A stretch of 61,136 nucleotides of DNA, the filler included, from Bonamia ostreae (taxonomy: Eukaryota): the NCBI GenBank assembly GCA_040357525.1. It is 13 parts of 13 records of this genome, joined end to end, with 100 filler letters (N's around TTAATTAATTAA, not from the genome) between each part and the next. Parts side by side here need not be neighbours in the genome. Positions count along the whole stretch, not along the records: positions 4,756 to 9,409 come from JBDODL010000283.1; positions 9,510 to 14,159 come from JBDODL010000284.1; positions 14,260 to 18,901 come from JBDODL010000285.1; 10 more parts are not named here. The stretch is one strand, 5' to 3'. The notes beneath the pieces were generated by a model, which saw only the letters and a list, made by a program, of their open reading frames with translations, had not been told where the DNA came from and did no database searches. Within the stretch, counting starts at the first letter, position 1. Each line of letters starts with the position of its first letter. Position numbers and translations under genes: made by a program. Positions 5,629 through 47,151 of this stretch are shown piece by piece.

Positions 5629-7143
5629 TTACTGATCGACTTTGATTTTTTTGAATACGGCCAAATAGGCTGAATGCCATTCTCCCCCACCGAATAGTTT
5701 CTTGATTTCGGAGACTGGCACCACTTCGACGGAATCGTCGTTGTACAAAAACCAGTTGCTCTCGTCCTTCTTCGTCCACGCGACGTAATGGCCTGATTCA
5801 GAATAAGGTCCTTGGTGCGTTATCAAGCTTTCCAACCGGTATCGGCCGGTTTCTTTTTCCTCTGAAATTTCTTTTTTTGAGAGCGATAAATCTGTTAAAA
5901 CTTTTTTTGAGTGCTTCTGTGCAGAAAGAAGTCATTTCGAGATCGCTGTCGACCGGAAAGGAAACCAGTTTCATGATTTTGGCTTTTCTCTGGATTTCTC
6001 TTTTCCAGTAAAAACGGACAAAATGGACGATCAAACAATCGGGCAATCGGTCGATTTTATTCGTTTTTATCCAGCTCAAGTCTTCGGTTGAGTTTTCGCC
6101 GCGTTTTATCAAGTTTTCGGAGAGACCGTCACTGATTCCTTTGAAGAGATGGTCTGTTTTCGCGTTTATGTGGCATTTTATCAACGAGAAATCTGTTTCG
6201 GTTTTCGTTGTGTTCTCGCTCTCGTCGGTGACGCATTTCGTTCTAGATTTTTAGCGTTCGAAAACATGGATTCCATTTTGCCGTCAAAAGTCGATGGCGC
6301 CAACTTGCCTAGTTCTTCCCGAATGGTGTTAACAATGAGGCCAAAACATTCTTCTGCGTCTTGTTGCTTGAAAACGCCATTATTCTCTTGTGCTCGAAGT
6401 TGCGGAAATGTGTTCAACAACATCTTTTTGATTGATAAAATAATCGAAATGGCTCAAATTATTAATTTTAAATTGTAATTTTAAAATTGTTAATTTAAAC
6501 GATCCAAAATTCCTTTGGCTTAACAACAGTTGGACTATTTTCCATCTTCGCAAATACTTTTCCCATTTCCACTAAGAGCAAATTAGCCTTATCAGACTTT
6601 TCGCTCTGTTTTGAATACAGAATCACGGCGTCCTTTATTTCAGTAATACTGAAGATCAATTGAAGCACGCTGTTCATATAACAAGTGTTCGAAATGTTTA
6701 TCAGCCCCTTCGCCGCTCCTTCCAAATGGTCTGTCTTCGTTTCGTCTTCAACAAATTTTATTCTTTTTACTGGTTGCTTTAGCGTCTTTGCGGATCCGAT
6801 CAGCAATATCTTTTGTCCCTTTTAAGATTTAAATTCTTTATATTGTCGCTTTGAAATTTTGTTAATTTTTCGTCTTTGCAATTTTGCCATTTCATCGTGT
6901 GCACAGATTATTTAAATTATTGTACAGTAAACTTCAACGAACGGAAATTAGAATAAAAACGTTTTTAAGAGCTTTGAGATCTTCTTCGGTTTTAATTTTC
7001 TTTCCAGAACTAACCAAAGTTTGTTTATTCACGGGCACGCTCGTCAGCGCATATATGCTATTTTTAAAATCCGCAAGTGATTTCTGTTTGTCGAGTACTA
7101 ATTTGTGTGTTTCCGGTCCGAATTTCAACGTTAGGTCAGTCAT
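5629..7143 (-). CDS. USP14: Ubiquitin-specific protease USP14/Ubp6
   Basis: N-terminal UBL, Cys box GLINISNTCYMNS, QQDAEEC, RFYWKRE..KAKI and His box HQG..SESGHYVAW. Four introns, including 6819-6960 and a 23-nt one. Confidence 0.92.
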
Positions 7144-7720
7144 ACAATGTTGGACGTGAAACTTAGTGGTTTGGCTAAATTAATATTCCATAGTTTAATC
7201 CCGTTTGATCGTAAAGTGGGTTTATTTCGGATTGAAGATAAATTATCCGATTAATATTTTGTAAATTTATTTTGGCATCGTTCGCTTAGAATCTACCGAT
7301 CGAATATTACAGTTAAAAAGTGGAAAATTGTATACAGAAGATTATTTTTATTTGTAAAATGGAAGATTATTTAGCGACAGAGTCAGTTAAGAATTTCCAG
7401 AAATCAAACTGAAAAACAAAGATTTTTATGCCGAACACACTCGATTGCGAATTATTAAACAATTTTCGTGTCATCTGATGAGGGCCGCACATTCAGATTC
7501 TGTGAGCCGCTTAAGACACTCGATATGATCTCGATTGCGCACGGAAATTCGGCTATATTCGCAGTAAATGACCCGATTTTCGCCAATAACAAAAAAAATA
7601 AACTTAACCAACTGTTATTCACCGATTTTTCTATGTTGAAAAGGTAAGCAGACTTTTTGCCTCAAAATTCTCCGAAATACAGCGAATCAAACTAACTCGA
7701 CCTTTTCATTTACAATAATA

Positions 7721-8172
7721 ATGAAGAGCAGTGCCGACGAAAAGGAACGGAAAAGGTTTCATCAACCATTTGTAGACTCGAAAGAAACAGACTTGCTGCA
7801 AGAGCCTCTCGCGAGAAGCACAAGAAGTATGTCCAGGAACTAGAAACCGAATCGGGCAAGATGCGCACTTCTATTTTTATTTTGCAGAAGAAAATTGACG
7901 AGTTACGATATGAGAATGCAATGTTGGCAAGACGAGTGATGAATCAGGGGCAGCAACGATTTTGTTTGCAATGCCGGGAAGGCGTCTCTCGAGACGGCGA
8001 TGAAGGCCAAAACAATCACCTTGCAGAACAGCAATACTACGAAAGATTAGACATGCACTCGCAAATGTTTAGAGCGAGATCTACTGTGAATGAAAGAGGA
8101 TACGGCAATGTATACAAAAACATGAACGTGGGTCAGTCTTATTTGTCAGACGAAATGTTTCAGGATTTCTGA
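7721..8172 (+). CDS. bZIP transcription factor
   Basis: Removing the 20-nt intron 7756-7775 gives KERKRLERNRLAARASREKHKKYVQELE followed by a heptad zipper (LE..M..L..L..L). Confidence 0.88.
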
Positions 8173-8198
8173 AACCGGTCAATGTGATTTTAAATCAA

Positions 8199-8280
8199 TA
8201 TGTACAACATTGTCAACAAAAATCGAAATTTATAAACTCTATGTACAACATTGTCAACAAAAATCGAAATTTATAAACTC
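8199..8280. repeat. ~41-bp direct tandem duplication between convergent genes
   Basis: tatgtacaacattgtcaacaaaaatcgaaatttataaactc occurs twice. Confidence 0.9.
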
Positions 8281-8304
8281 ATTTTGACGAATATGTCCAA
8301 GTTT

Positions 8305-9373
8305 TCATCTTCTGTTTAAAGTCTTCTTTAGTTTTTCTTTTTCCAAGAAATCAAGTACTAGTTTTCTTAAAATTTTTCTGTTCACTCTGCCATGAAAACC
8401 GACAGCATTCACTTTGACAGAATCGGCTCCTTCAACATAATCGAGTAGTTTGTCAAGAATTTTTTCGACAATAGGTTCTTCGTTATCGTATTTGCTCAAG
8501 TTCTCATCTCCTTTAAGCATTCTTTCGAATTTGTCAAGAATCATTTCTATAAAATATTCCTCTTCGCGATGATCATTATCGTCGTGAAGTTTTCCAAATT
8601 GATATTTAAAGTTTTCGCCAATGATTTTTCTCGTTTTGCTGCAAGTTGGTTCACTTGTAGATTTGTTGGGCTTCTCTTTACAGCTTAGTTTTCTTATTGT
8701 ACTAAGCGCATACTGGCAATTGGGTTGGTTTGCCGATTTTCCAGTGAAACCGAGTGGACGTTGTTGAGAGGTTCCAAAAATACCTCTCTCTTCTCTATAT
8801 TTATTGTTCGACGTTCCTTCTGATTTCGTCACTAAAGAATTGCTTTCAGCATAGCTGGGGATTCTTCTAAGCCTTCCCGAAAGATAATCATCAAGATTTT
8901 TAAAACTTGACGAGTTACTTAATTGAAAGTAATTGTAATCGTCTTTTAAATTCTTAGTTTCGTCAAAGAAGCCTTGTTGTCTATTCGAAATACTGTAAAA
9001 TTCTACATAGTTTTCATTTAAAAAAGGGCTGCTTATTTTCTGGGATATTTTTTCCTCGGGTTCTTCCTCATATCTTTGATTGTAAAAAAACGGTTTTGGA
9101 CCGTTATTGCAATAGTCATTAACATTTTTATTAAATTTCTTGTCATTGAGACTCCCGATTTCGCCTTTGTTTTTAGATAAAAGCCTATGAGGATTTTTAA
9201 AATAGTCGAAAATTCCAGTTTTTTCAAACGCGTCAGCTTTTCCATTATTTCTTAGTCTGCTTGAACTACCAGTACGATATCTTGTGCCAGCAAATCCTTT
9301 TGGATGATGTAAGAAAAGAAACCTAGCATCCCGGGTTTATCCGGTGCCCTGATTGCATCTTTTGGTTTACCAT
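8305..9373 (-). CDS. Hypothetical protein (~340 aa)
   Basis: ATG 9373 plus two short introns (26 and 19 nt) join into a long open frame ending at 8305. No family recognised. Confidence 0.5.
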
Positions 9374-9509
9374 GTCCCACAATCTTCTTTAGCGGGATTC
9401 CTGGTGTACNNNNNNNNNNNNNNNNNNNNNNNNNNNNNNNNNNNNNNNNNNNNTTAATTAATTAANNNNNNNNNNNNNNNNNNNNNNNNNNNNNNNNNNN
9501 NNNNNNNNN

Positions 9510-9769
9510 TAATAAAATTAACCTGAAACATCAAAAAGGGCAGCGTAATAGTAATAATTGGAAATTTGATATCGACATTTTTTGGCGTTTTGGTGCTTTG
9601 TTCAATATGTTTCGCATTTGCGTGCGTTTCCTTTTTCCCCTTTTTGTTAAGAGGACGTCGAAGCGATTTTAACAAAATTGAAAATATCGAAGAAACTGAC
9701 AAAGAAATCAGTAAAAATGATTTGAAGTTTTCAGTTATCGGTTCTGATGAAGAGAATAGTGAAAATTAA
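9510..9769 (+). CDS. C-terminal fragment of a single-pass membrane protein
   Basis: Hydrophobic ISTFFGVLVLCSICFAFACVSFFPFLL followed by RGRR and an acidic tail. 5' end cut by the linker. Confidence 0.45.
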
Positions 9770-9863
9770 ATTGCTATTAATTATGTCATTTTTAAATTAT
9801 TTAAATCTCAAGTATGTACAAAAAATTAAATTTGCGATGAATGTAGCCAAAGATTCTTTATTT

Positions 9864-10130
9864 TTATACACGGAAACTATTCTCAGTTTCGATTTCAGAA
9901 AGGTTGTAAATTTTTTCTAATTGGATTTGTCGGTTTTGAAAACATTTTAGACACAAATCGTAGTCGCAGAGATAACAACGAAATCGCGGGATTCTTTTAT
10001 TTTTCGACAAAAATTGTTTTCCGATTCCGCTTAAACATATTTTTTTGTTTTGTGAAATCGTTCCGTTGCAAAACCATCCGTTATCTCTTTTCGTTCCCAA
10101 AGGTATCAGTTCGTGGTTTCTTTCGCATTT
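9864..10130 (-). CDS. Cys/His zinc-binding (ZZ/C1-like) domain protein; 5' end unresolved
   Basis: KCERNHEL..GWFCNG...CLSG...RFRCYLCDYDLCLKC. Confidence 0.6.
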   Translation of the reverse strand, partial: KCERNHELIPLGTKRDNGWFCNGTISQNKKICLSGIGKQFLSKNKRIPRFRCYLCDYDLCLKCFQNRQIQLEKIYNLSEIETENSFRV

Positions 10131-10379
10131 TACAGGTATGTCACTCTATTTTTGTTGGCAACAACGATAATAAATAGTTGGAGCGATAACAATGTTGAAA
10201 TATATAAAATAAAGTGTTGGCCACGGCGATATAAACCTGGTTGTAACAATAATCGTCGCTTTCTGATTTCTCAATCGCTTGTCTATTTTCAAAACTAAAA
10301 GTTTTTCCCATTGTTACCAAAAAACCGAAAAGACTCTTTTCAATAAAACAGATTTTTTAAAGAGACTAGTTTAACCCGA

Positions 10380-10916
10380 ATGACATATCACAACGGATAT
10401 CACCACGAATACCAATGCGAACAGCCAATCGATTATTACGGCCAATGTTACGACCAGCACAAATTTCAGTGTGGACCGCCAGGTCCACCCGGTTGTCCAG
10501 GTCAACCAGGTTTATTGCTATTATAATCATTTTTCAAGTACTTTTTTCAAGTTTTTGTCGTTACCGATTATTTTAGAAGTACTTTTTTATTTATTCTGTT
10601 GCCGCCAATCATTTTTACAATTCGAAAAGGCTGCAGAGGACCAAGAGGATTAGATGGATGTCCCGGTTGCCCGGGAAAAAGAGGTTCTCGAGGATACCCT
10701 GGATGCTCAGGAAGACCTGGCTGTCCTGGAAAAACCGGTTGTCCCGGCCCCAGAGGACACTGTGGTTCAAAAGGCAAAAGTTGCCGCTGCAAGCGTTACA
10801 GAATAGTCTCCTCATCCGAAAACTCTTCTTCTTGCGATGAAAGCCACAGCGATGATTCTTGTTACTACACTTTACGCTGCAGAAAAAAGAACAAAAAGAA
10901 AAAATGCTCATGTTAG
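10380..10916 (+). CDS. Small Cys-rich collagen-like (Gly-X-Y) protein
   Basis: Intron 10510-10629 joins [12 protein letters not shown] to [12 protein letters not shown]..., giving 21 uninterrupted Gly-X-Y triplets. His/Tyr-rich N-terminus; KKKKCSC C-terminus. Confidence 0.8.
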
Positions 10917-12422
10917 TTAGCTTAATAAATGTTAATTTCGTATTTAAAAATGAATTTATTGCAGCGAAACTTCAAAATAAAGTGCTTTCTTCATGTTTTG
11001 GCAGTAATAACAAAATTTCAAGACATTTTTGATTTTCTATTTTGTCAAATTTGAAAACCGATTTCCGATTTGTTAATTTTAGTTTTGTTGTAAACGGCGA
11101 ATTTTCTTTGAAAACAGAAAAATTTATAATTTTTTCAGTTTTGTCGATTAATAATTTTGTGAATTTTGCGATGATTATTAAGAAATCAAAATGTGCGTTA
11201 AAATTTAGCAAGTTTGGACAAAAATAAAAAGTTTTTCGCAACAATTGTTTTTTGCGATTTTGCGATTTTTCGTCGATTTTTGCTTTTTTGTAAAAAAATG
11301 ATTTTTCCTTTTCGTCGCAAAAGTTTTTAATCAAATTTAAAATTGCTTTCTTTTCTATTTTTCTGTTGTTTTCTGTTGTTTTAATTATTTTAAGGAAAAT
11401 AAGAATATTTAAATTCTATTAAATAATAAAAACGTTTTAGATCGACAAAAAAATTTTTAAAACGGCAATCATCAATTTTTTTTAGTGCAAAAACAAATTT
11501 TTCGGAAAAAATGTCAAATTTTTGGAAAAACAATAGAATAACAAAATTCCTTTGCAGATTTGTAAAATTGGCCAACTTTTCAAAATTCGCCAAAAAACAA
11601 AACAATAAAACGATTTTTTTGTTAAAATCATTTCTTTGTACAAACATTCTATAAAATCGCTGAATTTTAATCAAAAATCGCCGTTTTCTGTTAATTTTCC
11701 CCCAAATTTGACTATTTTTAACAAAAATCGAAATTTTCTGCAATTTTATCAAAATTTTTTGAAATTTCTGCTTATTTTCTACAAATCTTAAAAAAATCTG
11801 CAATTTTCGAACATTTTTTGCAATTTTCAAACAATTTCCAGCAAATTTTTGTAATTGGAAAGTAATCCAAAACGCCATTATTTTCAACTTAAAAATTTTA
11901 AAAAGCGCTTTTCGAACAAAAACTAATATCCGTAAAATCATTTTTCTCATTTTAAAAAAAGTGTTTCTGTTGTTACAAACTTTCACAAAAACTTGTATTT
12001 TTAAGACTTTTAACTTTTTTGATCGGAAATATTTCATTTTTTTTATTCTAAATTTTTTGAAAAAACGAACGAAAGAAATTTTGGAGAGATTTTAACTGGA
12101 TTAATAATATTTGTGTTGTTAAAAAATGTGATTGTGAGATGTCATGTCTATTTTTTTAAAAAATTTAAGGCAAATTTCAAAAATGTATTTATTTATCGAC
12201 ATATTTATCAACACACCAAAACAATCTAAAATCAATAAAAATAAAAACTTTGAGCGATTTTTTTCCGCCAAAATTTGTTTATATTCTAAATTCGAGAGGA
12301 AAAGTTTTGTTTTGTGGGGGACCCCAAAAAGATTTTTTTCTAATTTGAAAAAAGGTCTAAAATCCAAATTTCTTTTTCTTGTTGTTTTTATGTCTTTTAT
12401 TTAAAATTCGATGTCATTTTTA

Positions 12423-13900
12423 TTCATTTTTGTCAAAAATTTAACCGAAAATTGGAAAAGACAATAAAAAAGTTTTTCTTTTGGTATCGCCAAATTTCCG
12501 AAGATTTGCCGATTTGCGATTTCTAAAATTTTCCAAAAAATTATCAAAAAAATCGATCGAGTCCATTTCGTTGTTGCAACCCGTTTTTTCGAAAAGTACT
12601 TTATTGTTACTAATTTTGTTCTTCTTTTCCGCTTTGGCAAAACAAAAAAAGGACCATGTTTGTGTTGAAGTCAAAACATCGTAGAATTCCTTATTTTTAA
12701 ATTTGTTTTTTTTATAAAAGACCACTTTATATTTTTCTTTTTTAGACGAAATGAATTTGTTTTTGTCGAAAACGATTTTGTTTTCTTCGATTTTGAAGGA
12801 ATCGCTGTAATTAAACAAAATTGTTCCCATGAACATTAAGAAACTTTCTTGTATCTGCGTTTTTAAAATACTTAATTTTGGCAACAATGATTTTTTCTAC
12901 GAAAATTCTTTTTCGCAACAATAATAAAGTTGTTTTTGGCAACAACAATAAAAAATGTTAATGCGATAAAATAATAACATTGCGAAATTTGCCTTTAAAT
13001 TTCTCTTTCTCAGAAATTCCGGCTTTTTCGGTTTTATTTGTTACAACAACTAATTTTTTGTTACCACTAAAATCTACACATTTTTCATTATCATTTTTAA
13101 AAGCTCTGTCATTTTTATATTTAGAGCGATCCACCAAAATTGGATATTTTAGAGCGCTTTTCGCTCTTAAATTTTTTAATAATGGCTTTGGAGATAATTT
13201 GTTATTAAAAGACGAAAATTTTCGATTGCCATCTTGCAATTTTCGAAATAACGCCATTTTTAATTTTTTTAAAGCTTGAATCGGCATTTGCGGGATCACA
13301 TAATTTTCCGGAAATATTATTTTATCGTTGTCGACATCTATTTTCACCGCCTTTATTTTGTTATTGTTACAAACAAAAACATTTTTTCGTCGGCCAAATA
13401 ATTTTTCGTCGTTGATACAAACGAGAAAAGGAACCGGCGCTTCTAAAAATCCTTCAATTTGGAGCACAGCAAAGGGATATAAACTCCTTGGTACTGCAAC
13501 GGAAATAAAAGAGATAGAAAAATCTCTGTTATTTCTAACAGAAAAGGAACACATTTCGAAAAGAAAATCAGATTTTGTTCGAGCAAAAGACAATTAAAAA
13601 TGGTCATTATGTTTTCGATCGAAACATATTTCAACAAAATCAGTTTCACGTTTGGAATTGGTATTTCCGTTGATGTTTGGCGTCTTAGAAGAATCGTTTT
13701 GTCGGCAATTATTACTTTGATATCAACTGCGTTTTTGGGAGGAACTGAAATTTACAGAGTGATTTAAAGTACCTGGGATTTCTGCGGCAACAAAGGTAAT
13801 GAGTCTTTCGACTTTTTGATAAAGAAAATAATTTTAAGAACTTGGAATTGGCGAATTTGAAAATTCGATTCTGTACAGAATTTTAAGGAATTTTAGAAAC
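12423..13900 (-). CDS. DENN-domain protein (Rab GEF), multi-exon, ends uncertain
   Basis: FNCLLLEQNLIFFS...LLFPLQYQGVYIPLL..KDF/LEAPVPFLVCI and dDENN-like FYDVLTSTQTWSFF. One apparent 1-nt frameshift in a T-run at ~13445. Confidence 0.8.
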
Positions 13901-13920
13901 GTTTCTTTAATATCGATAAG

Positions 13921-14159
13921 AAATTAATAAAAATCGATAAATTTGATCAAAATTAATAAAAAATCGATTAAAAATAATTAAAAAATCAATAAAAAATATT
14001 GATCAAAATTAATTAAAAAATCAGTAAAAATTAATAAAAATCGATAAATTTGATCAAAATTAATAAAAAATCGATTAAAAATAATTAAAAAATCAATAAA
14101 AAATATTGATCAAAATTAATTAAAAAATCAGTAAAAATTAATAAAAATCGATAAATTTG
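13921..14159. repeat. AT-rich tandem repeat (~108-bp unit, >2 copies) at a contig end
   Basis: aaattaataaaaatcgataaatttgatcaaaattaataaaaaatcgatt... is repeated. Confidence 0.85.
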
Positions 14160-14259
14160 NNNNNNNNNNNNNNNNNNNNNNNNNNNNNNNNNNNNNNNNN
14201 NNNTTAATTAATTAANNNNNNNNNNNNNNNNNNNNNNNNNNNNNNNNNNNNNNNNNNNN

Positions 14260-15628
14260 GAGCACGCCTGGCTGGTTGTCCTGGTACGTGGTGAAGTTCT
14301 CCGTCTTCTAGGTGGGGAGGGTCGTGTTACGGGGGATCAAGGTGGTCATGATTCCGCCCGCGGTCTCGATGCCGAGCGAAAGCGGCGTCACGTCGATGAG
14401 CAGCAAGTCGCTCGTCGCTTTCCCGCCAGTCCCGCTCAGAATCGCGGCCTGCACGGTGGCGCCATAGGCCACGGCTTCGTCGGGGTTGATCGAGTGGCAC
14501 GGCTCCTTCCCGTTGAAGAAGGACTTGATCATCTCCTGGATCTTCGGGATGCGCGTGCTGCCGCCGACTAACACGATCTCGTCCACGCGCGCCTTGTCCA
14601 CCTTCGAGTCGCGCAGCACTTGTTGGACTGGGCCGATGCACTTTGCAAAGTCTTCTTGGCACAGGTGCTCGAACTTGGCCCGAGTAATCGACGAGCTGAA
14701 GTCGATCCCGTCGTGGAGAGAGTCGATGTCGACGTGCGCCTGCTTGTTGGAGGAGAGGGTTTTCTTCATGGCCTCGCTCTGCGTTATCAGCTTCCGCATG
14801 GCTCGCTTGTCCTTCGTGATGTCCTTCTTGTGCTTGCGCTGGAACTCGGACGCGAGGTGGTTCACGATCTTCAGGTCGAAGTCCTGCCCGCCGAGGTGCG
14901 TGTCTCCGGCGGTGGCCTTCACCTCGAAGATCCCGTCGTCGATCGCGAGCAGAGACACGTCGAAAGTGCCTCCTCCCAGGTCGAAGATGAGCACGGTCTT
15001 CTCCTTGTCGCTCTTCTTGTCGAGCCCATAAGCGATCGCCGCCGCGGTCGGCTCGTTAATGATCCGCAGAACGTTGAGTCCTGCTATCTTCCCGGCGTCT
15101 TTTGTAGCCTTGCGCTGTTCGTCGTTGAAGTAGGCGGGCACCGTCACGACGGCGTTCTTCACCTCCTGGCCGATCTTCTTGCTGGCCACATCTTTCAAGT
15201 AGCCGAGCAACATGGCCGAGACCTGCTCCGCGCGGAACTGCTGCGTTTTCTTCTGGTGGTTCACCTCGATGACGGGCACGCCGTTCTTGGCCGCCACTTT
15301 GAAGGGCCATGTCTTCATGTCGTTTTGGACGTTCGGGTCGTTGAACGTCCTTCCGATGAGGCGCTTCGCGTCGTAGACGGTGTTGGACGGGTTGCGGTTC
15401 GCCTGGTTTTTGGCCGCGCGGCCGATGAGGCGCTCCTCCTCCGTGAAGGCGATGTACTGAATTTAAGGAGGAAAACAGAGGGCGTGGTGCGTTCTCCGAC
15501 GTCGTTCGCGATGATCTCGGGTTTGCCGTTGACAAAGTGCCCGACGCAGGAGTAAGTCGTCCCCAAGTCGATCCCGATGCCTTTAAATATTTGGGAAAAC
15601 AAGGTCCTTCTGCTTTTTTGTCAGTCAT
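14260..15628 (-). CDS. HSP70: Cytosolic Hsp70 (3' truncated by the contig end; one in-frame TAG at 14308-14310)
   Basis: Removing 20-nt introns 15581-15600 and 15457-15476 gives [23 protein letters not shown]...[18 protein letters not shown]. Also [34 protein letters not shown] and [11 protein letters not shown]. Confidence 0.97.
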
Positions 15629-15798
15629 TGGAAATTGCGAGAATGTTCTGAATGCTAATTTTTAGTGAGAGCTTTATGAAGGGTTTAGCTAATGTTTTTC
15701 GGGCGGCTAAATTTTATTCGATATATAGATTTTTTATTTAGCGAGAGAGCTTTAAAATTTTTTTGTTAAATCGCTTTCCTTAAGAATCTCGAATAGAA

Positions 15799-17683
15799 AT
15801 GTTTTTGTTCGGCAAAAGATTCTTTTCCGGCAGCGCCCTGCAACTCTCCATTGAAAAATTTGTTATTTGCCTAATTTTAGCAAAAAAACGTCTTCGAAGC
15901 CATCAACGTTGCAAGTCCGAAACGACTCAACGTCCTGAAGAGCTTCCAGAACTACGCTCTTCTCGAAGGGAGCTTGCCCGTGGGCTCCGTGGTCGAGTTT
16001 GCGGATGGAAGTTTTGGGATCGTCAACTTTGTCGTAAAAAAACGCGTCCTCGCTCTCACCTTTAATAGAAAGGTCCGAGAAGGCGCCGGAGCCACTGCTC
16101 TGCACAACCGCTTCTTGTTTAAGTTCGAGTTTTCTTCTTTCGGGAGCTGCGTCGACGTTCTCGGTCGCCCAGTTCTCGGCTCCGAACCGGCGAACCGACG
16201 GACGGCTCTCGCACAATTGCTGGAAGACAGGTTCGGCCACAAAAAGGTCTTTCTCGACGTCTCTGGAAGAGAGTGCGTGCCCTTCCTAAAGCGCGTGCGG
16301 CTCAAATCCGTTTACCGGTTCAGAGACCTATTGCTCGACAGTTTTTGCCCGGTGCCGTACGGCTCGAGCCTCGGGATCTTCGGGGACAGGTTCATTTTTA
16401 ATGTTTTCAAATAAGAAAACAAAATCAGAAAAATTGTTAATTTCAAATTCGTTTTTCGGAATTTTCAATTTCTTTTCATAAATCGCAAAAATCGCAAAAA
16501 TTAACAAAATCGCAAAAATGATAATTTCAATTTCTTTTCATAAGAATTTTAAATTCCAGAAACATCTCAATGGCCCGCGTACGCAAAATCCTCGCGACAA
16601 TCGCCAGGAACAACTGCAATCTGGAGTACAGATCCGAAGCCGGGCTCGGCGGAAGAAAGGCCGTCGTAGTGCTCGGCGTGTCCGATTACTCGAACAGCCA
16701 CATCAACCGGCTCCGGAGCGACTTTCTCCGCGCCGCCGGCTCGGACGCGCTGGCCATCGCGAGCGAGAGCACCGCCTCCCCGCTAGAAAAGGTCCTGGTG
16801 CCCCGGGCGGCCTTCGCGGTCGGCGAGTTCCTCAGCCACCACGGCTTCGACGCCTTCGTCGTCCTGGACGATCTGGCCATGCACAGCAAGCAGCGAAACG
16901 AGCTGCTCAGGTTCCTTTCTCCACGGCAGCAAGGCGGTGGGCGACACGAAGCAGACCAACATCTACGCGACGCTCCTCGCGAAGTGCGGCGTCTACGAGA
17001 CGGAGCACGGCGTCGGGTTCTAACCGCAAACCGTAGTTCGCTCACGGCCATCTGCGCCGCCTCGAAGAACGTCGTGGGGAAGACGAACAGGCTGTTCTAC
17101 GACGCCTGGGCCGACTTGGAGTCCAACTGCGACTCTTCGCTGCACTTGGACAAGATCTTCGTCGACACGGACCTCAACTCCGCAAGATTCGCCAAGTTTT
17201 AGTTCCAACCCAGTTTCGTGAGTCCGGCGGCGCGCCCGCACGTGCAGCGGATCGCCGACTACGTCTCGACCTACAAGAGCGTCGACAACGCGCTCAAGCT
17301 GCAGCAGAAAATGGGGCTGGACGAGATGGACATGATGGAGAAAGCGCGGCATCTGAGACGGCAAAGGAAGCTGTTGAGGATGATCAGCGACTTCGACGGC
17401 CTCGCGGAAGAGGAGTCCCTGGCGTTGCTGGTCTCCGTCGGAGCCACGGGGATTCTGGACAGTGTCGCCGAAGAACACGTGCTCGACTTCGGGAACGAGT
17501 TCTTAGCCGAACTGAGGTTTCTCTACAAAGCTTCGAAGGAAAAGTCGCGTTCCGGAGAAAACGAGGAACTTGATTCGCGCGGGAAAACAAATGCCTGCCT
17601 GCGTGTTGCAGGAAATCGCAGCGTTGGCCGATTATGTTTTGAAGGTGAAGCCGTATCTGAGAGGGTGGGCTTTAGTAAAATAA
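15799..17683 (+). CDS. Highly divergent F1-ATP synthase alpha-subunit homolog (~538 aa) with mitochondrial-type presequence and degenerate P-loop
   Basis: Six introns: 15862-15880, 16390-16559, 16911-16929, 17017-17036, 17196-17213 and 17517-17538. Colinear alpha motifs: VVEFADGSFG, VDVLGRPV, LDSFCPVPYG..LGIFGDR, AFAVGEFL, VVLDDL, LLAKCG, GSLTAI. N-terminus MFLFGKRFFS. Confidence 0.8.
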
Positions 17684-18287
17684 AAATTTTGTTTGAAGAA
17701 AAACAAATTTTGATTGTTTTATCGTCTCGAACATAAAATAATAAGAAGGACAAAATAAAACAATTCGAAGAAGGTGTCTGACAGTTTGGGTTAATTATAA
17801 CATTTACGTTTTCATCTTTTGTGCTTTTATTCGATATAGAATGCCTTTATCTTTTGTGCATTTTGTTCTTTTCATCTTTCATCTTGGAATAACATTGAGT
17901 CTTGTTAGGGATACCTCTTTAATCTAAAGGGTTTTTCCAATCAGTGGTCAATTTTTTTTGTGTATAATAAGTTGTTCAGTCTATTCATTTACAATCAACA
18001 TCACTTCTCCATTTTAACTTTCCAATCAAGTTCAACATTTTTTTTATCATTTCTGTAGTTTCGATAGTTAAATCAGTTTGGCATCTGTCTCATAAAAGAC
18101 TATTTCTCTTTCGGAAATAGTCTTTTCTTCTCATAATAGAGAATTCTGGCTTGATCACCGTTGAGACAGATCATTTTCAAAATTTCAATGTTTATTTTCC
18201 AATATAGAATAAATGTTATTTAATATTTTCATTTCAATATTATCTATGTTGTATCTATTAGGTATTAATTAATTGTATTGAACAGAA

Positions 18288-18576
18288 TTGCCAAATCCCA
18301 CAAATTTCAAGACTTATCCAAAATAATCTGTTCGGGATCACAAAAGTCTCCATTCTACGCATATTATCCAAAATCTTCAAAGCCAAAACACGGGGTAAAA
18401 TATATCCACCTCTGCTCCAATTTTATTTAATCTCGACAACTCAGCGCCGAAGTCAGCACCTGAACAGAAGCAATTGATCAACTCCAAATAATTTTGGATA
18501 AATTCAAAAATGAATGCAAACGTTTAGAACTGCGAATATCTACTGAAAACTAAGATAATGTTTTTTGGAATGAGAG
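18288..18576 (+). mobile_element. Degenerate non-LTR retrotransposon (LINE-type) reverse-transcriptase remnant
   Basis: Frameshifted pieces occur in the right order: SRLIQNNL..LSKIFKAKT / GVK / SAPILFNL / DQLQIILDKFKNECKRLELRISTE / TKIMFFG. These match LINE RT motifs (S..F.V.TGVKQG..L(S/A)P.LFN; LQ..L...GL.IS..KTKIM). The YADD segment is missing. Confidence 0.55.
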
Positions 18577-23734: not shown

Positions 23735-26700
23735 ATGGTGTTGTTTGCGGAGAATGTGGAGGAAATATGCACTATGATCCAATTACTGCTAAATGTTACA
23801 AATGTGGACCTTTTATGGTACCAGATCAGAATTTAATCGATTGCTGTTTTTATTATAGTTGTTTGTTCATGTTTCAAAATTTATTATCTGCAAATTTGAT
23901 TTTTTGTTTCGTAATCCATTTAATCTACGGTTCCTGTTTACATGATCCAACCATGTAATCATTGTTACAAATCCTAAAGGGCTAACCCTTCCATTCCCAA
24001 TGTCTCCCTTTAGTTTCAAAGTTTAAATTGCGTCGACTACACACACGCCTTTGAATATTTACACTACCAGGTGTGAACTGAAGAGGACGATCAAGGCGTT
24101 GGTTAGGATTTGTTTCCTATATGACACCGTCTCTCATCAGAAAGGCAAAAATTAAAAAAAAATAGGAAAAACAATTCTATTATTTAAAAAGTGACATGCA
24201 GTGGAGATCAACATCCGATTGAAGGAGCTGCAAAATGTGGATCGTGTTCGCCAAGTCAATTTTTTAACACTATAAAATTGGATTGCAATGAATGCGATAG
24301 CAAAAGTATAGTTTCCATAGATAAAAGAAGCTGCAGTTTTAAATTTTTACTTTAATTGAAGTTGAATGTGATTTGTTGTCTTACCCGATTAAAAGCGGAT
24401 CAGAATGTGGCTACTGTGACATGAACACATTCTATTCGCAAAAGGAAAAGTCTTGTGTCGAGTGCCCTCAAAACGAGGCTCCTTTTAAGGATAGATCTGG
24501 TTGCCGTTTTTTTAATAAATATTTTTATCCGTTTACTAAATTGCAAAGCGAATATAAAATTTGCCGAAAGAAGACAGTTGAATAAAAATTGAAAATATTT
24601 TTAAAAAATAGAAAATTGTGCAAAAACAAACAAATTTGCTTTAAATGGTGAGACAACATGTTCAAATTGTCCATTGAATAAAATTTACAATTCAAAACGA
24701 AGAGAATGTGTCGATTGTGACGATAATTCAGTTCCCAGTTCAAACCAAACGTCCTGTGGTTTAATTGAACATTATTCAATATGTAAACAATCAAAATAAT
24801 TAATATTTCATGATAAATAATACGTACTCTGGATTTTGTATCTGTTAAAGTCGTGTCGAAAATTTCCTTTCTGGCTCAGATCACTTTAATGAGTTGAAAA
24901 TCTAAAAAATAAAAAGATATTTGTCCTGTTGGTACTTTCCCAATAGCATCCGGAAAAACTTGTGGAATATGCGCAAATGGTTTCTATCCCGATTCAATTA
25001 CTAAAAATTGTCTACTTTGCACTGATACAGCTGACAATGAATTTTGTGGTTTTATTTTTAAGTTATATTTTTGCAGAAAAATGTCCTTCGAAAACTTACA
25101 GAATGAAAAATGGAAAATGCTCTTTGTGTCCAAAACATCAAATTTTGAACATTGTTACGAATTTATGCGAAGAATGTCCTTTGTTTCAAGTTCCCAACGA
25201 AGATCAATCAATTTGCGGTTATTATTTTATTTTTATAATGTAAATGTTTTATATTAACAAAGTAATGTTAATTAATTAATATTTAAAGAGATTTGTGAAG
25301 AAGGAGAATATCCTATCGAAAAAGGTATGAAATGTGGAGTATGTGAAAAACACTATTATTATAAGGAGTCTTCGTTAATTTGCGAAAAATGCAACGATAA
25401 ATCCATTTCTGTTATAGCCAATATTCCCATTTGTCGTTTTAAAAATTTACATTGCAATAATAAAAAGAAAAATGTGAAGATAAAATGTATCCAATCGAAA
25501 AAGGAACAAAATGTGGGCAGTGTTCAATAGGACAAATTTATGATAAATTTACTTTAGAGTGTCTATCTTGTAACAACGACCAAATACCAGACGAAAATAA
25601 TCTTATGTGTGGTTACTATTTTAAAAACTAACAGTAATCCATATGAAAAAATCAATTTTCTTTAACATTGATCGCTAGTAATTTAAACTCAACAAAAAAG
25701 AAAAATGTGCTCAAGGGTTTTTCCCAATAAATTTCGAATGCAAAGAATGCCCATTGCAATTTATTTACAATCCATCATTTCTTCAATGCCAACAATGTCC
25801 AATTAAAACAGTTCCAAATTACGAACAAACCTTATGCGGTTCAAATTTTTTTCTTGTTATCACTCAAGAATATCATTATTTTTTATTTTAACAAAGTCAT
25901 TATTTATAATCTGGAAAAATATTCATGATCACTCAAAAATTTTCCTGATTATTGTTACCATCTTAAAAAAAAGTTGCTTGTGAAAAAAACAAACAAGCAG
26001 TAAAAAACGGAACGGAATGCAAAAAATGCTCAGCCAATCAGTTTTATGATACCCAAAAAAGAGATTGTTTTTTATGTGAAAGCAACAGTGTACCAAATTT
26101 ATCGAAGACGAGCTGCTGTTTCATTTAAATAAATATTTTAGCCGAATGCAACGATAACGAATTTGTTATTAGAAACGGAACCTTTTGCGGTTTGTGCCCA
26201 GATGGTCAATATAGAAACAACGGAATTTGTGAAAAATGTCCATTTCTGTCTATTCCGAAAGAAGATCAAACCGGCTGCATGCTTTGTCCTCCAGGAAATT
26301 ACGCAGACGCAAATCTCTCTGCATGTCTCCCCTGCAAACAGCATTTGTTTCTTAATGTCACGTCAGGAAACTGCGAAGAGTGTTTGGAAAACAAATTTCC
26401 CAATGAAGACAATACTGATTGCAGTTTTTAATTTTTTTTGGATTCAGAGTTTAAACAACATTTATTTTCACTTTCCTCATTTTGAGCATTTTAACAATTC
26501 GTTTGCCATTTAAAGTTATTGTTTGCCCCGATCAATATTGGCCTAATTTGGATGCCTGGCAATGTTTAAAGAAACCGCTTATTCGACTGACATGGTGGCA
26601 ACACATAACGATTGCTTGGCTTGCGTTGGCAACAATCGTTTTGTTGGGTATTTTTATTTTTTGGAATTATCCGTTTTACGAGTCAGTAGATTTGCCATTT

Positions 26701-27034: not shown

Positions 27035-28306
27035 ATGGGATATCTTATTTGCTTCCTATTTATTTGTATTCCTCATTGTTATTCTCAAAACACACCAGTT
27101 TATAGTTTTGTTTTAAGATATGTAGTACAAACCAAAAAAATATTAACAAGTAAATTAAACATGTACTTTAAAAATTATCATAAAAAGGCGATAAAGTCTA
27201 TCTAGACACAACAACAATAAGAAATGACTGTTTAGACACAGACGGCAACAGAGTAATCTTTGCAAAGTGCGCTGAAAACAACAAAAATTTATTTTATTTC
27301 ACATCAGCATTCATTGGATCAATTAAACATTCGAAATCTAACAAATGTGTTTCTGTGGATGGTGATGACAATCTAGTGCTTACTATTTTAGAAGAAGATT
27401 GCAAAGATTTTGTTATTTATGATAATAACATCATCTTGCAACAAAAATTGTTTAGTTATTCAATAATGAACAAAAAAATGATTGCCTTTATAACTGGCGA
27501 CACGGAAGAATTTGTAATATTTAAGAACAAAATAGTTGTCCCACCTCCTGAAATTCTAAAGATCAGTTACTTTGGGGTTGAGGAAGAACCAAAAGAAATG
27601 ACTATAAAAATGATGAAACCGCGGTATCTAGAAATTTACAAAAATATTGAATTTCTAATCTATAATTCTGACATCGAGGAAGCATTAATTTTCGACCCAT
27701 TTGAAGAATTAACGTTGACAAAGGGGGATTTCAATTTTTTAAAAGCATTTAAATTGCGTTTTAGAAACAAAATAACGGGTCTGATGTCCGTAGAGCATCA
27801 TCAGAAGCCAACTTGTTACAGAGACTGTGGGGGTACAAATTGTTTTAAGACGGGGAAAACGTGTGAGAAATGCGAAGGAAATTTTTATATGAATTTACTT
27901 TTGGAGACTTGTGATAGATGTCCTGATAATATGGTGCCAGATGACGAAAATTCTGATTGCAGTTTAAATTTTTAATAGACTTTAAAATTTAGTTAAATGT
28001 TTACCGGGAATGAGACCGATAAAAAACGGGACAATATGTGGATATTGTGAAGATAACATGTACTACAATTATATAGAAGAAGAATGTCACTTTTGTGATG
28101 GCTTGACAAGTATTCCGAATTCAACAGTAGACGGATGCAGTTTCGAAACTAACTTTAAAAAGTATTTTGCAACAATGATGAATATGCTATTGAAGGAGGC
28201 ACAAGATGTGGAAAATGCAACGGAGTTAATCTTTATAATCCTGCTAAAAGAGAGTGTAAAACATGTCCAGAAAACAGCGCCTTAAACATGAAATCATTCG
28301 AATGCT
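27035..28306 (+). CDS. Paralogous surface protein: signal peptide, ricin-B-like domain, possible FN3-like region, then Cys-rich repeat exons; 3' truncated
   Basis: MGYLICFLFICIPHCYS; NDCLDTDGNRVIFAKC..IKHSKSNKCVSV. Repeat exons 27993-28139 and 28163-28306. Confidence 0.75.
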
Positions 28307-30315: not shown

Positions 30316-31964
30316 ATGGCCAGATCATTTTTTCTATACTCTTTCTTAACAATCTATACAATTTATATAATTATCGGCATCAAATTCTTAAAAGTGCACC
30401 GTGAAAAATTGCCTGAAACCGCAAAACTAGTTATATAAAAAAAATTCAGAAAAAAAGTTTCAATGTTCCTCTAGACATTAATCTGCACTTCATAGGATTT
30501 ACTGGTAATTTTGTAAAAGACGTTGACACCCAGTCTCAAAAATTATCTTTATTTATCAACGAAAAGGCGAAAAAAAATTTGCTCGTAAAAATGCATTTTT
30601 TCACTTCAAAAGAAATCCCAAACAAAAAATTAGAAGGAATTAACAATTTTTATGTCGTAACAAACAAAGAAAGTAGCAGAAAATTTCAAAATATAAATTC
30701 AACCTGGACTTTATTGGAAGACTCTTCAGCCATTTTAAAAATCGACCAAAATTGTTTTTTAAGTAATAAAAAAGTTGAAATTGGACGATTTTGGGACGAT
30801 TTTGTAGATTTTTTGAAAAATAAAATCTTTCTGACGAAGAATAAAACGACTGTAAATAATTCGAAGACTTTCGATTTGTTGAACGAAAACAAATACATTT
30901 TTTCGTTTTCTTTGTTGAACTCTTTGCCTTCAGATCTCGTTTTCACGTGGAATTTTGATGACATCTATCAAAGTTAAAATTTTGCAATAAAAGAGTACTT
31001 GAGAACGTTTTTGGATAAAATGTCGTTTTTGGATATAAAAATTGACGCGCAAATAAAGAATTACGGCCAGATATCGAAAAATCGATATTTGTTCGATTCA
31101 AAAGATTCAAAATTCTATCTGAAAAAGAAGAACTTGAACAGTTTCATCGGCAAAACGCGATGGAATTCAAGTGAATTTTTAATTTAACAAAAAGAATCGT
31201 TAGACCCGGAATACCAAACGGTCAATTTTCTGGTTTTCGTTCCGCCATTGGAAAAGCAACCTTTGGAAATAAGAACCACTAAAAACAAAGCAAAAGCGTT
31301 CATTGTGCCGAAATGGGGTGGCGTGACGATCTGGAACGTCCCGAAAAGTGCTCGAAGTCAGTGCAAAAACAATATTTGTTTTGTCCAATCTGAGGAGTTT
31401 TTGCCTCAAATGGAAACTTTTGCTTATCAGATCAGACTAATGCTTGGTTTAGAAGACAACGGTGGCGCCAATGGTTTCAATGGTTTGATATTAAATATGG
31501 CAATGTCGATACAATTTTTCTACTTTATAACGAAAAATCAAAATTTTAATTTTTGAGAAATGGAATTACAGGCGATTTGTATCGAAAGAATACTCAGAAA
31601 CATAAAAAAGTTTAAAGAAAAAATATTCTCTCTTTATACACAATTTGATACTCTTCAGCAGTTACCGATTCGGAAAGAAGTCTCTCTTCTTATACGGAAA
31701 TCTATGGACCACTACGAAAATGTTTGTAAAATCAATTGAAAGGCTGAAAAAGAATGCGCCGAGTCAGATTTGAAAAACTGTCTAAAAAGTTCAATGAGCG
31801 CTTTGGAACTAATTTCTAAAGCGTACTTTGATTCTTCGATCGTGTCAAAATTATATTTTTCGACCGAATATGTTTTGACCATTTTTGCGCCTTATTTAAT
31901 CATCGCCACTATTCCCGTTTTAAAGGCGGTTTTTGCGGATGTAAAGAAATGGATGAGAAATTAA
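30316..31964 (+). CDS. PIGS: GPI transamidase subunit PIG-S/Gpi17
   Basis: N-terminal TM, AFIVPKWGGVTIWN, QIRLMLGL and C-terminal AYFDSSIVSKLYFSTEYVLTIFAPYLIIATIPVL. Confidence 0.85.
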
Positions 31965-37108: not shown

Positions 37109-37779
37109 TTATTTAAATAACAGAAAAGTAATAATAATGAAAGACGCCGAAACGAAAATAAAATTTGAGCAAAATATCAAGAAGGCCAAAATTATTAAAT
37201 ATTTTCTCTTTTTGCAGTTATTTTTACCAACACAAAAATTCCTTTTTAAAAAGTGTCCGTTTTTCGACTTTTTCGTTTTAGCAAATATTTGTTTATTAAA
37301 ATTGCAAATTTGATATTTCGGATCCAATTTTTTATTTTCCACGCAAACTGGTAAAGAAGACCATTTTAAGTTCTTAGTTGAATCGTCTAAAATGCACTTT
37401 ATTTCACTGTTGCCAATAATTTTGAAATTGTTGTTACATGTAACAACGATTTCTGTCCCATATTCAAAATTTTGTGTTTCGGGCAAATCTGAGTTCAGTA
37501 TTGTAATTTTTGGGCATTTTTCTATTTATAAATTTTTTAAATTGTAATTTATAAATCGAAAATTTTGTAAAATTGACAAATTTCAACTTTTAACACAATT
37601 TTCGCCAATATTCCAAACATCTAGAAAATAGCACATAGCGAAGGGATTTTTAGTTTCATATCCAATCACACATTCGAATTTGCACAATCCATACAAAAGC
37701 GTCCCGTCGCAATCCTCAAACTTTTTAATTCCATTAGAAGATGTTGGTGCTTTGCATTCAAATTTGCTATCTGATAATA
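37109..37779 (-). CDS. Second tandem sushi/CCP membrane protein (5' truncated)
   Basis: CKAP..CDGTLLYGLCKFECVIGY..C..W and CPKI..FEYGTEIVVTCNNNFKIIGNSEIKC..KWSSLPVC, with a hydrophobic C-terminus. Confidence 0.8.
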
Positions 37780-46224: not shown

Positions 46225-46340
46225 TGCGATTAAATATAGTCAACGGGATTCAATATATTGGAATTTTGTATGACTTTTAACATATCGAATTTGTTTAATC
46301 TCTTTACTTAGCCAATTTATTTTTAGCTCTTGAAAGCTTT

Positions 46341-47151
46341 ATGTATTCCTTTTACAAACAGACACATTTCGGCACGAGCATAGAGAATTCCGAGAGAGGC
46401 CATTTCTTCGACTCCAAATCGGAAGTCGTCGCCGTTTCAAAGGGAAACGTACTGGAAGTTTACACCGTTCGGAAAAACAGCAGAAACGACTACAAACTGC
46501 ATTTGACCGGCAGTTATTCTTTCTTCGCTCTAATAAAATGCTTCTGGTTCGCAAAAATTATTTTTGTCAGTTTCGCCAAATTTGCGGGGCATTCGAGAGA
46601 CTCCATTCTACTCGGCTTTGAGAACTCAATGATGTCCATAATCAAATTCAACAAAGCCACTAACGACATCAGAACGATATCAATGCACACTTTCGACCGA
46701 CATTACCGCAATGTTTTCTTTTCTAAATTTATCTGTTGCAGGAAGGATATAGGTCACAGCATTTTAGATATCTCGCGGTGACAGATCCTTTAAACCGCTG
46801 CACAGTAATGTCGGTTTCCGAGTCCAAAGTTTTAGTAATGCCTTTGACCAACAATAATCTCACCTTTCTGAAAAATCAGCGGCGGTTAGTTGAACATAGG
46901 TAAAATTGCGAAATTTAAAAATCGCTAAAATTAAATAGAGATTTGGAACCGGACGAAATAAAAACATCTTCGATAATAAAAGAAAAGTCTATGTTTCTCA
47001 TCGATTTAATTGGGCTCAATATAAAAGAAATAAAAGACATTAAGTTTCTACACGGATATGACCAGCCGTCTATTATTGTACTCCATTCTGCTAAACGCGC
47101 TTGGATGGGGTCCATTTTACATATTTTTGACATCAACATCACTTTTAAAAT
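46341..47151 (+). CDS. CPSF1: CPSF160 (CPSF1) N-terminal part, 3' truncated
   Basis: RDSILLGF..MMSII.F....IRTISMHTF, TDPLNRC, IKEIKDIKFLHGYDQPSIIVLH. Confidence 0.88.

Follow-up and report, generated by a model that had tools for sequence, protein, structure and literature searches.

The window analysed here is a stretch of 61,136 nucleotides (nt) from Bonamia ostreae, a haplosporidian oyster parasite (Rhizaria, Ascetosporea), and the subject of this report is the set of mostly very short introns that interrupt its protein-coding genes. It consists of 15 sequence pieces, joined by runs of N and one 12-letter spacer; since two of these joins mark gaps within scaffolds, the number of scaffolds is 13, each of about 4.6 kb, and the overall G+C content is about 33%. 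Seven genes are considered in detail, coding for a cytosolic Hsp70, a protein resembling the alpha subunit of F1-ATPase, a bZIP protein, a USP14-like deubiquitinating enzyme, a MutS protein, a GTPase of the GNL2/Nog2 type and a NAXE/YjeF_N protein. A sequence-only reading of the window had proposed that conserved proteins are restored by removing GT-AG introns of 18-25 nt that have an atypical GTT(T) donor and lack a polypyrimidine tract, and had quoted six examples, all of which are present at the given coordinates and strands with lengths of 20, 20, 20, 19, 20 and 18 nt. In total, 19 introns in these seven genes, on five of the 13 scaffolds, are supported by RNA-like contigs, public gene models, evidence from G+C at third codon positions (GC3) and open reading frames (ORFs), or homology-checked junctions; they form a small and non-random sample. 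It is virtually beyond doubt that these segments are genuine GT-AG spliceosomal introns of B. ostreae nuclear genes, excised from the RNA where predicted. Whether short or long, they have in common a transformed donor, G-U-U-(U)-(Y), a terminal NAG and an A-rich stretch centred 7-8 nt upstream of the 3' end.

Splicing of the Hsp70 and F1-ATPase alpha-like genes

Contigs from public sequencing runs were compared with the piece 14260-18576, which carries the Hsp70 gene and the alpha-like gene. Run X1 is DNA; the kinds of X3 (given as 'RNA?', a guess) and X6 ('?') are not recorded. The introns of the two genes are as follows.

15581-15600, minus strand: Hsp70 intron 1, 20 nt, GTTT...AAG; X3 loose ends and exon joining
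15457-15476, minus strand: Hsp70 intron 2, 20 nt, GTTT...CAG; X6 contig, X3 loose end and homologue alignment
15862-15880, plus strand: alpha-like intron 1, 19 nt, GTTA...TAG; skipped in an X3 contig, retained in X1
16390-16559, plus strand: alpha-like intron 2, 170 nt, GTTC...CAG; three X3 contigs and GC3 phase
16911-16929, plus strand: alpha-like intron 3, 19 nt, GTTC...CAG; GC3 shift, absent from the list of the sequence-only reading
17017-17036, plus strand: alpha-like intron 4, 20 nt, GTTC...TAG; return of the GC3 class from 1 to 0
17196-17213, plus strand: alpha-like intron 5, 18 nt, GTTT...CAG; sole stop between same-frame ORFs, and GC3

A 1049-nt contig of X6 spans 14459-15527 with exactly 15457-15476 missing, and an X3 loose end at the same intron matches 15448-15456. 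Loose ends of 8-9 letters in X3 at 15477, 15580 and 15600 correspond to the sequence beyond 15457-15476 and 15581-15600; those flanking 15581-15600 are found in three contigs at 15580 and in two contigs at 15600. The alignment to cytosolic Hsp70 homologues runs without a gap over TTPS|YIAF, the junction of intron 2. Removal of intron 1 connects the ATG exon with the next coding exon, at a junction N-terminal to the aligned region. In the alpha-like gene, a 426-nt X3 contig spans 15614-16058 with exactly 15862-15880 missing, and in three X3 contigs 16389 is followed directly by 16560, so that a 170-nt GT..AG segment is gone. This joint was detected as 16386>16557, and moving the cut by +3 gives the GT..AG ends; the change of GC3 phase over 16390-16559 agrees with 170 modulo 3.

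Conversely, the X1 DNA keeps these segments. No deletion was seen at 15457-15476 (0 of a depth of 20.6) or at 15862-15880 (0 of 11.3), and the 170-nt segment is likewise retained. All four introns checked in this manner (15457-15476, 15581-15600, 15862-15880 and 16390-16559) are thus absent from the RNA-like contigs and kept in DNA, and the three of them that had been quoted as introns from the sequence are confirmed as such. The word depth of X3, about 1e5 over the Hsp70 exons against about 1e2 in the flank, is also RNA-like, although contig depth is a poor measure.

The remaining introns of the alpha-like gene are read from codon usage. In Hsp70 (14311-15456) and the alpha-like gene (16560-17560), 85-100% of third codon positions are G or C, against 33% G+C in the genome overall, a bias that is perhaps tied to high expression and that is strong enough to make the reading frame visible without homology. 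About 90% of third codon positions in the alpha-like gene are G or C, and the GC-rich codon position falls in class 0 over 16560-16910, in class 1 over 16930-17016 (29 of 29 positions G or C in this segment) and in class 0 again from 17037. These shifts are exactly those predicted by removing 19 nt (16911-16929) and 20 nt (17017-17036). Alignment of the unspliced ORF to F1-alpha structures in the PDB fades at about residues 127-141, and the donor of intron 3 lies at residue 129. As for intron 5, the TAG at 17200-17202 is the only stop between the same-frame ORFs 16525-17199 and 17203-17733, and the GC3 class is the same on both sides of 17196-17213, as required by a length of 18 nt, which is divisible by three.

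The nearest relatives of the Hsp70 share only 69% identity and belong to diatoms, fungi and plants. The alpha-like gene (15799-17736, plus strand) has diverged strongly. It scores 24.4 against Pfam ATP-synt_ab, where the cut-off is 29.5; the best of its PDB matches has an expectation value (E) of 6e-4, and a PDB search with the frame of its middle exon gave nothing relevant. The 170-nt intron lies at the expected position of the P-loop, and the spliced reading appears to lack a Walker A motif at this place.

Some differences between the assembly and the contigs were also observed. At the scaffold end (14308-14329), positions 14310, 14319 and 14329 differ from X1 and X3 contigs alike, and the change at 14310 turns the terminal stop of the Hsp70 ORF into a sense codon. 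Because both sets of contigs make this codon sense, the stop at the scaffold end is probably an assembly error. About half of the X3 depth differs at 14965 (A>G) and 15073 (G>A) within Hsp70, and the X6 contig carries both changes, which represent alleles, strains or a second gene copy. In the non-coding flank at 18315-18361, a low-depth X3 contig has insertions of one and 14 letters, and a loose end of X11 has the same 14 letters; these reflect either an insertion or deletion between isolates or an assembly error.

Introns in the other genes

Twelve further introns of the supported set lie in the other five genes, and are listed here together with candidates that were kept outside that set.

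7756-7775, plus strand: bZIP gene intron, 20 nt, GTTT...TAG; restored domain and gene finder
6819-6960, minus strand: USP14-like intron 1, 142 nt, GTTT...AAG; exact mapping of P0241 with a 1-nt boundary ambiguity, continuous with P0242
6424-6500, minus strand: USP14-like intron 2, 77 nt, GTTT...AAG; mapping of P0241 and alignment to P0242
6243-6265, minus strand: USP14-like intron 3, 23 nt, GTTT...TAG; mapping of P0241 and donor-blind gene finder
5871-5901, minus strand: USP14-like intron 4, 31 nt, GTTT...AAG; mapping of P0241 only
56158-56177, minus strand: intron of the MutS gene (named msh4), inside the P-loop, 20 nt, GTTT...CAG; mapping of P0244
56073-56097, minus strand: MutS intron, 25 nt, GTTT...AAG; mapping of P0244, continuous over AHIG|SFVPA
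55996-56017, minus strand: MutS intron, 22 nt, GTTT...TAG; mapping of P0244 with a 1-nt boundary ambiguity, alignment continuous
55800-55819, minus strand: MutS intron, 20 nt, GTTT...AAG; homologue register, missing from the public model
55531-55594, minus strand: MutS intron, 64 nt, GTTT...CAG; mapping of P0244, continuous with homologues in the corrected frame
45192-45383, minus strand: GNL2/Nog2 GTPase intron, 192 nt, GTTT...AAG; PDB alignments, boundaries from the gene finder
50396-50414, minus strand: NAXE/YjeF_N intron, 19 nt, GTTT...TAG; sole GT-AG candidate of up to 40 nt between two ORFs
9297-9322, minus strand: candidate intron, 26 nt, GTTT...AAG; single frame-joining candidate also picked by the donor-blind finder, without independent support
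30430-30449, plus strand: candidate intron in the PIG-S gene region, 20 nt, GTTA...CAG; single candidate between adjacent ORFs
30973-30993 and 31722-31742: similar candidate introns near the PIG-S gene; each the only candidate between neighbouring ORFs

Two public protein models map onto the window and already contain most of the USP14-like and MutS introns. NCBI MES1919419.1 (P0241, 'deubiquitinating enzyme [Bonamia ostreae]') maps residue for residue with four introns (142, 77, 23 and 31 nt). Three of the four junctions are continuous against homologues, and that of intron 4 sits in the variable insert of the family. Likewise, NCBI MES1919455.1 (P0244, 'MutS protein msh4 [Bonamia ostreae]') maps with four introns (20, 25, 22 and 64 nt). 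At the junction 56158-56177, alignment to P0254 and P0252 is continuous over GPNA|SGKST. A fifth intron is missing from this model: only with 55800-55819 removed does AWASAEK|LAEK..LFSTHFFEL come into register with MutS homologues, the alignment then continuing through the ATPase domain, and the public model, lacking this intron, carries about 70 residues after AWASAEK that are out of the MutS frame (55595-55994, minus strand). In all, five MutS junctions are continuous against homologues. The introns themselves were therefore already implicit in public gene models, eight of them with a GTT donor in the two models mapped.

Homology also showed the limits of joining ORFs. Four other candidates in the MutS gene (55819-55843, 55646-55668, 55504-55521 and 56017-56046) were rejected as introns, being coding by homology. 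ORF-joining alone is thus untrustworthy here, and further GTT candidates elsewhere in the window were consequently not counted.

For the bZIP gene, removal of 7756-7775 connects a basic ATG exon (7724-7755) to the ORF 7696-8169, in which the Pfam bZIP_1 match begins only at profile position 9 and which has no in-frame upstream ATG. The donor-blind gene finder picks this intron as well as 6243-6265 and 9297-9322. Three of the introns quoted in the sequence-only reading are accordingly upheld by indirect evidence: 17017-17036 by the GC3 shift, 17196-17213 by the in-frame stop and 7756-7775 by the restored bZIP domain. The ORF 45379-46239 aligns with human GNL2 up to residue 290, and the ORF 44647-45204 from residue 290 onward, placing the 192-nt intron between them. 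In the NAXE gene, PDB alignments break off at chain residue 118, which corresponds to residue 102 of the 109 retained from the ORF, and restart at residue 125.

Several other features were observed in the window. The ORF 46299-46778 (plus strand) codes for the N-terminal beta-propeller of CPSF1, a cleavage and polyadenylation factor (PDB E 5e-11), and a candidate 29-nt intron starting with GTTT follows it at 46713-46741. Further ORFs match Pfam families (10370-10913, plus strand; 37112-37525, minus; 877-1170, minus; 27184-27972, plus; 26129-26428, plus), with domains that include a collagen triple-helix repeat (Gly-X-Y, Cys-rich), Sushi, ricin-B lectin and a Cys-rich receptor-like domain. These ORFs may code for surface or host-contact proteins. 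C2H2 zinc-finger matches are also present. The collagen, Sushi and C2H2 matches are suggestive of a reduced parasitic animal (myxozoan or dicyemid), an origin that is rejected because the closest Hsp70 relatives are diatoms, fungi and plants and because two B. ostreae proteins map exactly onto the window.

Lengths and splice-site signals

The 19 introns measure 18, 19 (three introns), 20 (six), 22, 23, 25, 31, 64, 77, 142, 170 and 192 nt, that is, 13 of 18-25 nt, one of 31 nt and five of 64-192 nt. Most are shorter than about 30 nt, as in ultra-short intron systems, and those of 18-25 nt are near the shortest workable length; the distribution is not of the narrow, near-fixed kind, given the lengths of 31, 64, 77, 142, 170 and 192 nt. 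Fifteen of the 19 lengths are not divisible by three. Introns are frequent, with five in the MutS fragment, five in the alpha-like gene and four in the USP14-like gene.

Every one of the 19 introns starts with GT and ends with AG. All 19 carry T at +3, where the frequency of T after GT in the whole window would give a fraction of 0.464 (binomial p 4.6e-7); the same is true of all 12 members of a strict subset supported solely by RNA-like contigs or public gene models (p 1e-4). At +4, T occurs in 15 of 19, the background being 0.48 (p 0.006), and 15 introns start with GTTT. A pyrimidine occupies +5 in 15 introns and G in one, and position +6 is T in nine. The GTT donor is found in all five long introns, which bears out the claim that short and long introns use the same GTT(T) start, and the U at +3 is very probably a true recognition signal. 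Two further tests, weaker than the statistics of the supported introns, point the same way: a gene finder with an equal penalty for all GTN donors gave 14 GTT among 19 predicted introns (p 0.015), and 32 of 48 frame-rescuing GT-AG junctions with a single +3 letter had GTT (p 0.002). The codon-usage gene finder is weak and, after retraining, drifted towards GC-rich genes. When all 256 pairs of boundary dinucleotides were compared over 345 frame-rescue junctions, GT-AG ranked eighth by ratio, above the 95th percentile and not as an outlier.

At the 3' end, A is found in 12 of 19 introns at -8 and likewise in 12 of 19 at -7, and G at -3 in none. Over -12 to -4, A makes up 40% and pyrimidines 54%; over +4 to +10 the pyrimidine share is 67%, so that the pyrimidines sit just downstream of the donor. 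In the usual sense, then, the proposed absence of a polypyrimidine tract holds between the A-rich stretch and the AG. The AAAG terminus is found in six of 19, and YTAA within the last 16 nt in 10 of 19. The statement that the same pattern occurs in every contig stands on independent evidence for five of the 13 scaffolds; elsewhere it concerns model-based candidates, and it is likely to be correct.

These introns lack both the GTRAGT-type, U1-pairing donor and the polypyrimidine tract, and are atypical members of the U2-type GT-AG class. The extended donor of the U12-type minor class occurs in none of the 19, in which positions +3 to +5 are T, then T, C or A, then mostly a pyrimidine.

Recognition of the GTT donor

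The sequence-only reading had inferred a spliceosome with rewired recognition of the 5' site (an altered U1 or U6, or definition of introns by length) and a reduced dependence on U2AF65, a proposal that is plausible and for which Entamoeba offers a precedent. Standard donors of the GTRAGT type pair with U1. A GUUU start without G at +5 would form only about two Watson-Crick pairs with the 5' end of a standard U1 (ACUUAC), in which case recognition of the intron start could not depend on canonical U1 pairing. Canonical U1 pairing is probably not used in these introns. The GUUU donor would instead be read chiefly through pairing of positions +2 to +4 with an ordinary U6 ACAGA box. Before that step, the introns might be met either by a co-evolved U1 small nuclear RNA (snRNA) with an A-rich 5' end (...AAAC), similar to that of Entamoeba, or by no U1 at all, a route for which the mikrocytids, in which no U1 was found, may be a case. 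These two routes are held about equally likely, and each is advanced tentatively. The A's at -8 and -7 may serve as the branch site, and the 3' AG would be chosen by its distance from it, as the gap of 5-6 nt leaves no space for a tract of the kind bound by U2AF65. Taken as a whole (genuine introns, a transformed donor and the proposed mode of recognition), this explanation is given a probability of roughly 70%.

One of the two closest parallels is Entamoeba, for whose GUUUGU(U) donor with co-evolved U1 the source is reportedly Davis et al. 2007. The likeness of the B. ostreae introns comprises U at +3 (19 of 19) and at +4 (15 of 19), a donor unable to pair with a standard U1, and an A-rich, branch-like motif at a short and fairly fixed distance from the 3' end. 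In a preprint by Roy and Bowser (bioRxiv 10.1101/2022.06.08.495308), Entamoeba donors are given as GUUUGU and the pairing site of its U1 as ACAAAC instead of ACUUAC. The same text states that GUUU may pair better with an unchanged U6 ACAGA, so that U6 need not be altered. In contrast to Entamoeba, where G at +5 and U at +6 and +7 are fixed, B. ostreae has G at +5 in one of 19 and T at +6 in nine of 19; Entamoeba is intron-poor whereas B. ostreae has four to five introns per gene fragment; and the Entamoeba introns, as far as the sources seen describe them, are not ultra-short. Entamoeba is moreover unrelated to Bonamia, and its U1 sequence is known. A literature search for donors with U at +3 and +4 (GUUUGU-type) as a lineage-wide rule found Entamoeba only.

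The other close parallel is the mikrocytids Mikrocytos mackini and Paramikrocytos canceri, for which PMC10245619 gives introns of 16 nt (217 of 224) or 17 nt, a reduced spliceosome, and U2, U4 and U6 as the only snRNAs identified. They share with B. ostreae the class Ascetosporea, introns at the lower length limit and a conserved intron sequence. However, mikrocytids have few introns and none in metabolic genes, unlike B. ostreae, in which introns of 18-25 nt occur together with others of 31-192 nt, including in chaperone and ATP-synthase-like genes. The nucleomorph of Bigelowiella natans has introns of 18-21 nt, as described in the parts of PMC10245619 and PMC2222250 consulted, nearly the same length class and with many introns per gene; unlike Bonamia, it is the relic nucleus of a green alga, and its introns keep to the narrow range of 18-21 nt, long ones being absent. 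Ultra-short GT-AG introns that a functional spliceosome splices are likewise known from heterotrich ciliates (Stentor, 15-16 nt) and from Paramecium (20-35 nt), according to PMC10245619, PMC13644364 and PMC2222250, but these organisms are free-living and have a different length mode. Finally, myxobolid myxozoans and Dicyema have a median intron of 22-27 nt and a 5' motif 'GTa', according to PMC13644364. They resemble B. ostreae in a median near 20-27 nt, reduced splice-site motifs, weak A's before the AG and no or only a very short pyrimidine tract, but they are animals and use 'GTa' rather than GTT.

No published account of Bonamia or haplosporidian introns of this kind was found in a search that left subscription journals (e.g. 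older haplosporidian actin-gene work) outside its coverage. The word 'intron' occurs 0 times in the Bonamia transcriptome paper and is absent from the text supplements of the B. ostreae genome paper (PMC11069148; four supplementary files searched). The main text of that paper describes canonical introns with a mean of two per mRNA. Its sheet 'B.ostr. losses' contains 'mRNA splicing, via spliceosome' in 9 of 328 entries against 77 of 12517 (false discovery rate 0.0064). The text also warns that genes may be missing from a fragmentary assembly, and since the assembly is incomplete, the 'splicing losses' may be gaps.

Among the alternatives, the one that survives best, although it is considered unlikely, is that nothing has been rewired: U1 and U6 would be of the standard kind, and the spliceosome would tolerate the mismatched donor with the aid of proteins and of the short, fixed intron geometry. 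Precedents exist, in that a standard U1 is reported for three other groups with atypical donors, namely Thecamonas, five Mamiellales and 69 species of Saccharomycotina (the yeasts), in the preprint cited above (bioRxiv 10.1101/2022.06.08.495308), and an atypical donor alone does not, in consequence, predict a rewired U1. The listing of 'U1 snRNA binding' among the orthogroups of the sheet 'B.ostr. gains' (1 of 145; PMC11069148) is in line with this alternative, as is the description of the introns as canonical in the genome paper. Still, those comparison lineages deviate at one or two positions and with a partial preference only, whereas U at +3 in 19 of 19, U at +4 in 15 of 19 and G at +5 in 1 of 19 would leave about two pairs with a standard U1; and the sole lineage with the same U at +3 and +4, Entamoeba, carries a compensating U1. 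That T at +3 mirrors base composition alone is very improbable: T follows GT in 46% of cases in the window, and four frame-joining GTT candidates proved to be coding, but T in 19 of 19 introns (12 of 12 in the strict subset) departs far from this background, and +4 is enriched in T as well. Hardly conceivable, finally, is that the segments are not introns and represent small assembly errors, strain-specific insertions or deletions, excisions at the DNA level or sites of translational recoding, for although the assembly appears to err at three positions at a scaffold end (14310-14329, judged by X1 and X3) and the kinds of X3 and X6 are off record, the X1 DNA retains every segment missing from X3 and X6, all 19 segments have GT and AG ends and a common internal pattern, 15 have lengths that are not multiples of three, and the X3 depth over the Hsp70 exons is as for RNA, within the limits of contig depth as a measure.

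Several points weigh against the preferred explanation, in which the introns are genuine and canonical U1 pairing is not used. On the side of the introns, X3 and X6 have no recorded RNA status; the shorter anchor of the 170-nt joint is just 28 letters; no contig shown for the piece 14260-18576 bridges or skips 16911-16929, 17017-17036 or 17196-17213; and three of the six introns quoted in the sequence-only reading (7756-7775, 17017-17036 and 17196-17213) have no RNA bridge. On the side of the donor rule, a candidate junction in the PIG-S gene region (31171-31194) would call for a GTG donor if a 54-nt alternative that starts with GTT is not the one in use, and an unverified junction at 13727 or 13684 may need a GTA donor. 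On the side of recognition, the standard U1 of the other atypical-donor groups, the term 'canonical' in the genome paper and the fragmentary state of the assembly all count, and the steps that involve U1, U6 or U2AF are all inferred, neither an snRNA gene nor a gene for a spliceosomal protein having been found in the window. An Rfam search of the window gave 0 matches at the gathering score and hence no snRNA gene, and a relaxed search (E<=1) returned a single bacterial sRNA match, at chance level. No tRNA genes were found in the window. Spliceosomal protein genes were likewise not found there, the RSE1-like ORF 46299-46778 matching CPSF1 rather than SF3B3, a U2 protein.

The lower limit of intron length, and the means by which a spliceosome locates a 5' splice site unable to pair with U1, are open questions for which few lineages are available. 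To these, Bonamia would add, beside the mikrocytids, an intron-rich lineage that mixes introns of 18-25 nt with others of 60-200 nt under one donor rule, and comparison with the mikrocytids makes the order of donor change, shortening and spliceosome loss testable. The findings also have a practical use in the annotation of B. ostreae, as gene finders run with default settings go wrong on such genes. A 20-nt intron is overlooked in one of the two public models mapped, which then leaves the reading frame, and errors of this kind have a bearing both on how many genes are counted and on the 'losses' inferred for an economically important oyster pathogen.

For the evolution of introns and the spliceosome, the interest lies in the proposal, for which the odds are put somewhat below even, that Bonamia, and perhaps all Haplosporida or Ascetosporea, moved off canonical U1 pairing, either with a compensating, A-rich U1 or with no U1 and a U6 that reads GUUU directly. 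If a compensating U1 were present, Bonamia would provide a second, independent example of an snRNA that has co-evolved with the splice site, and the first such example from a genome rich in introns. The introns of 18-25 nt, being near-minimal, would then represent a stage before the fixed 16-nt introns of the mikrocytids.

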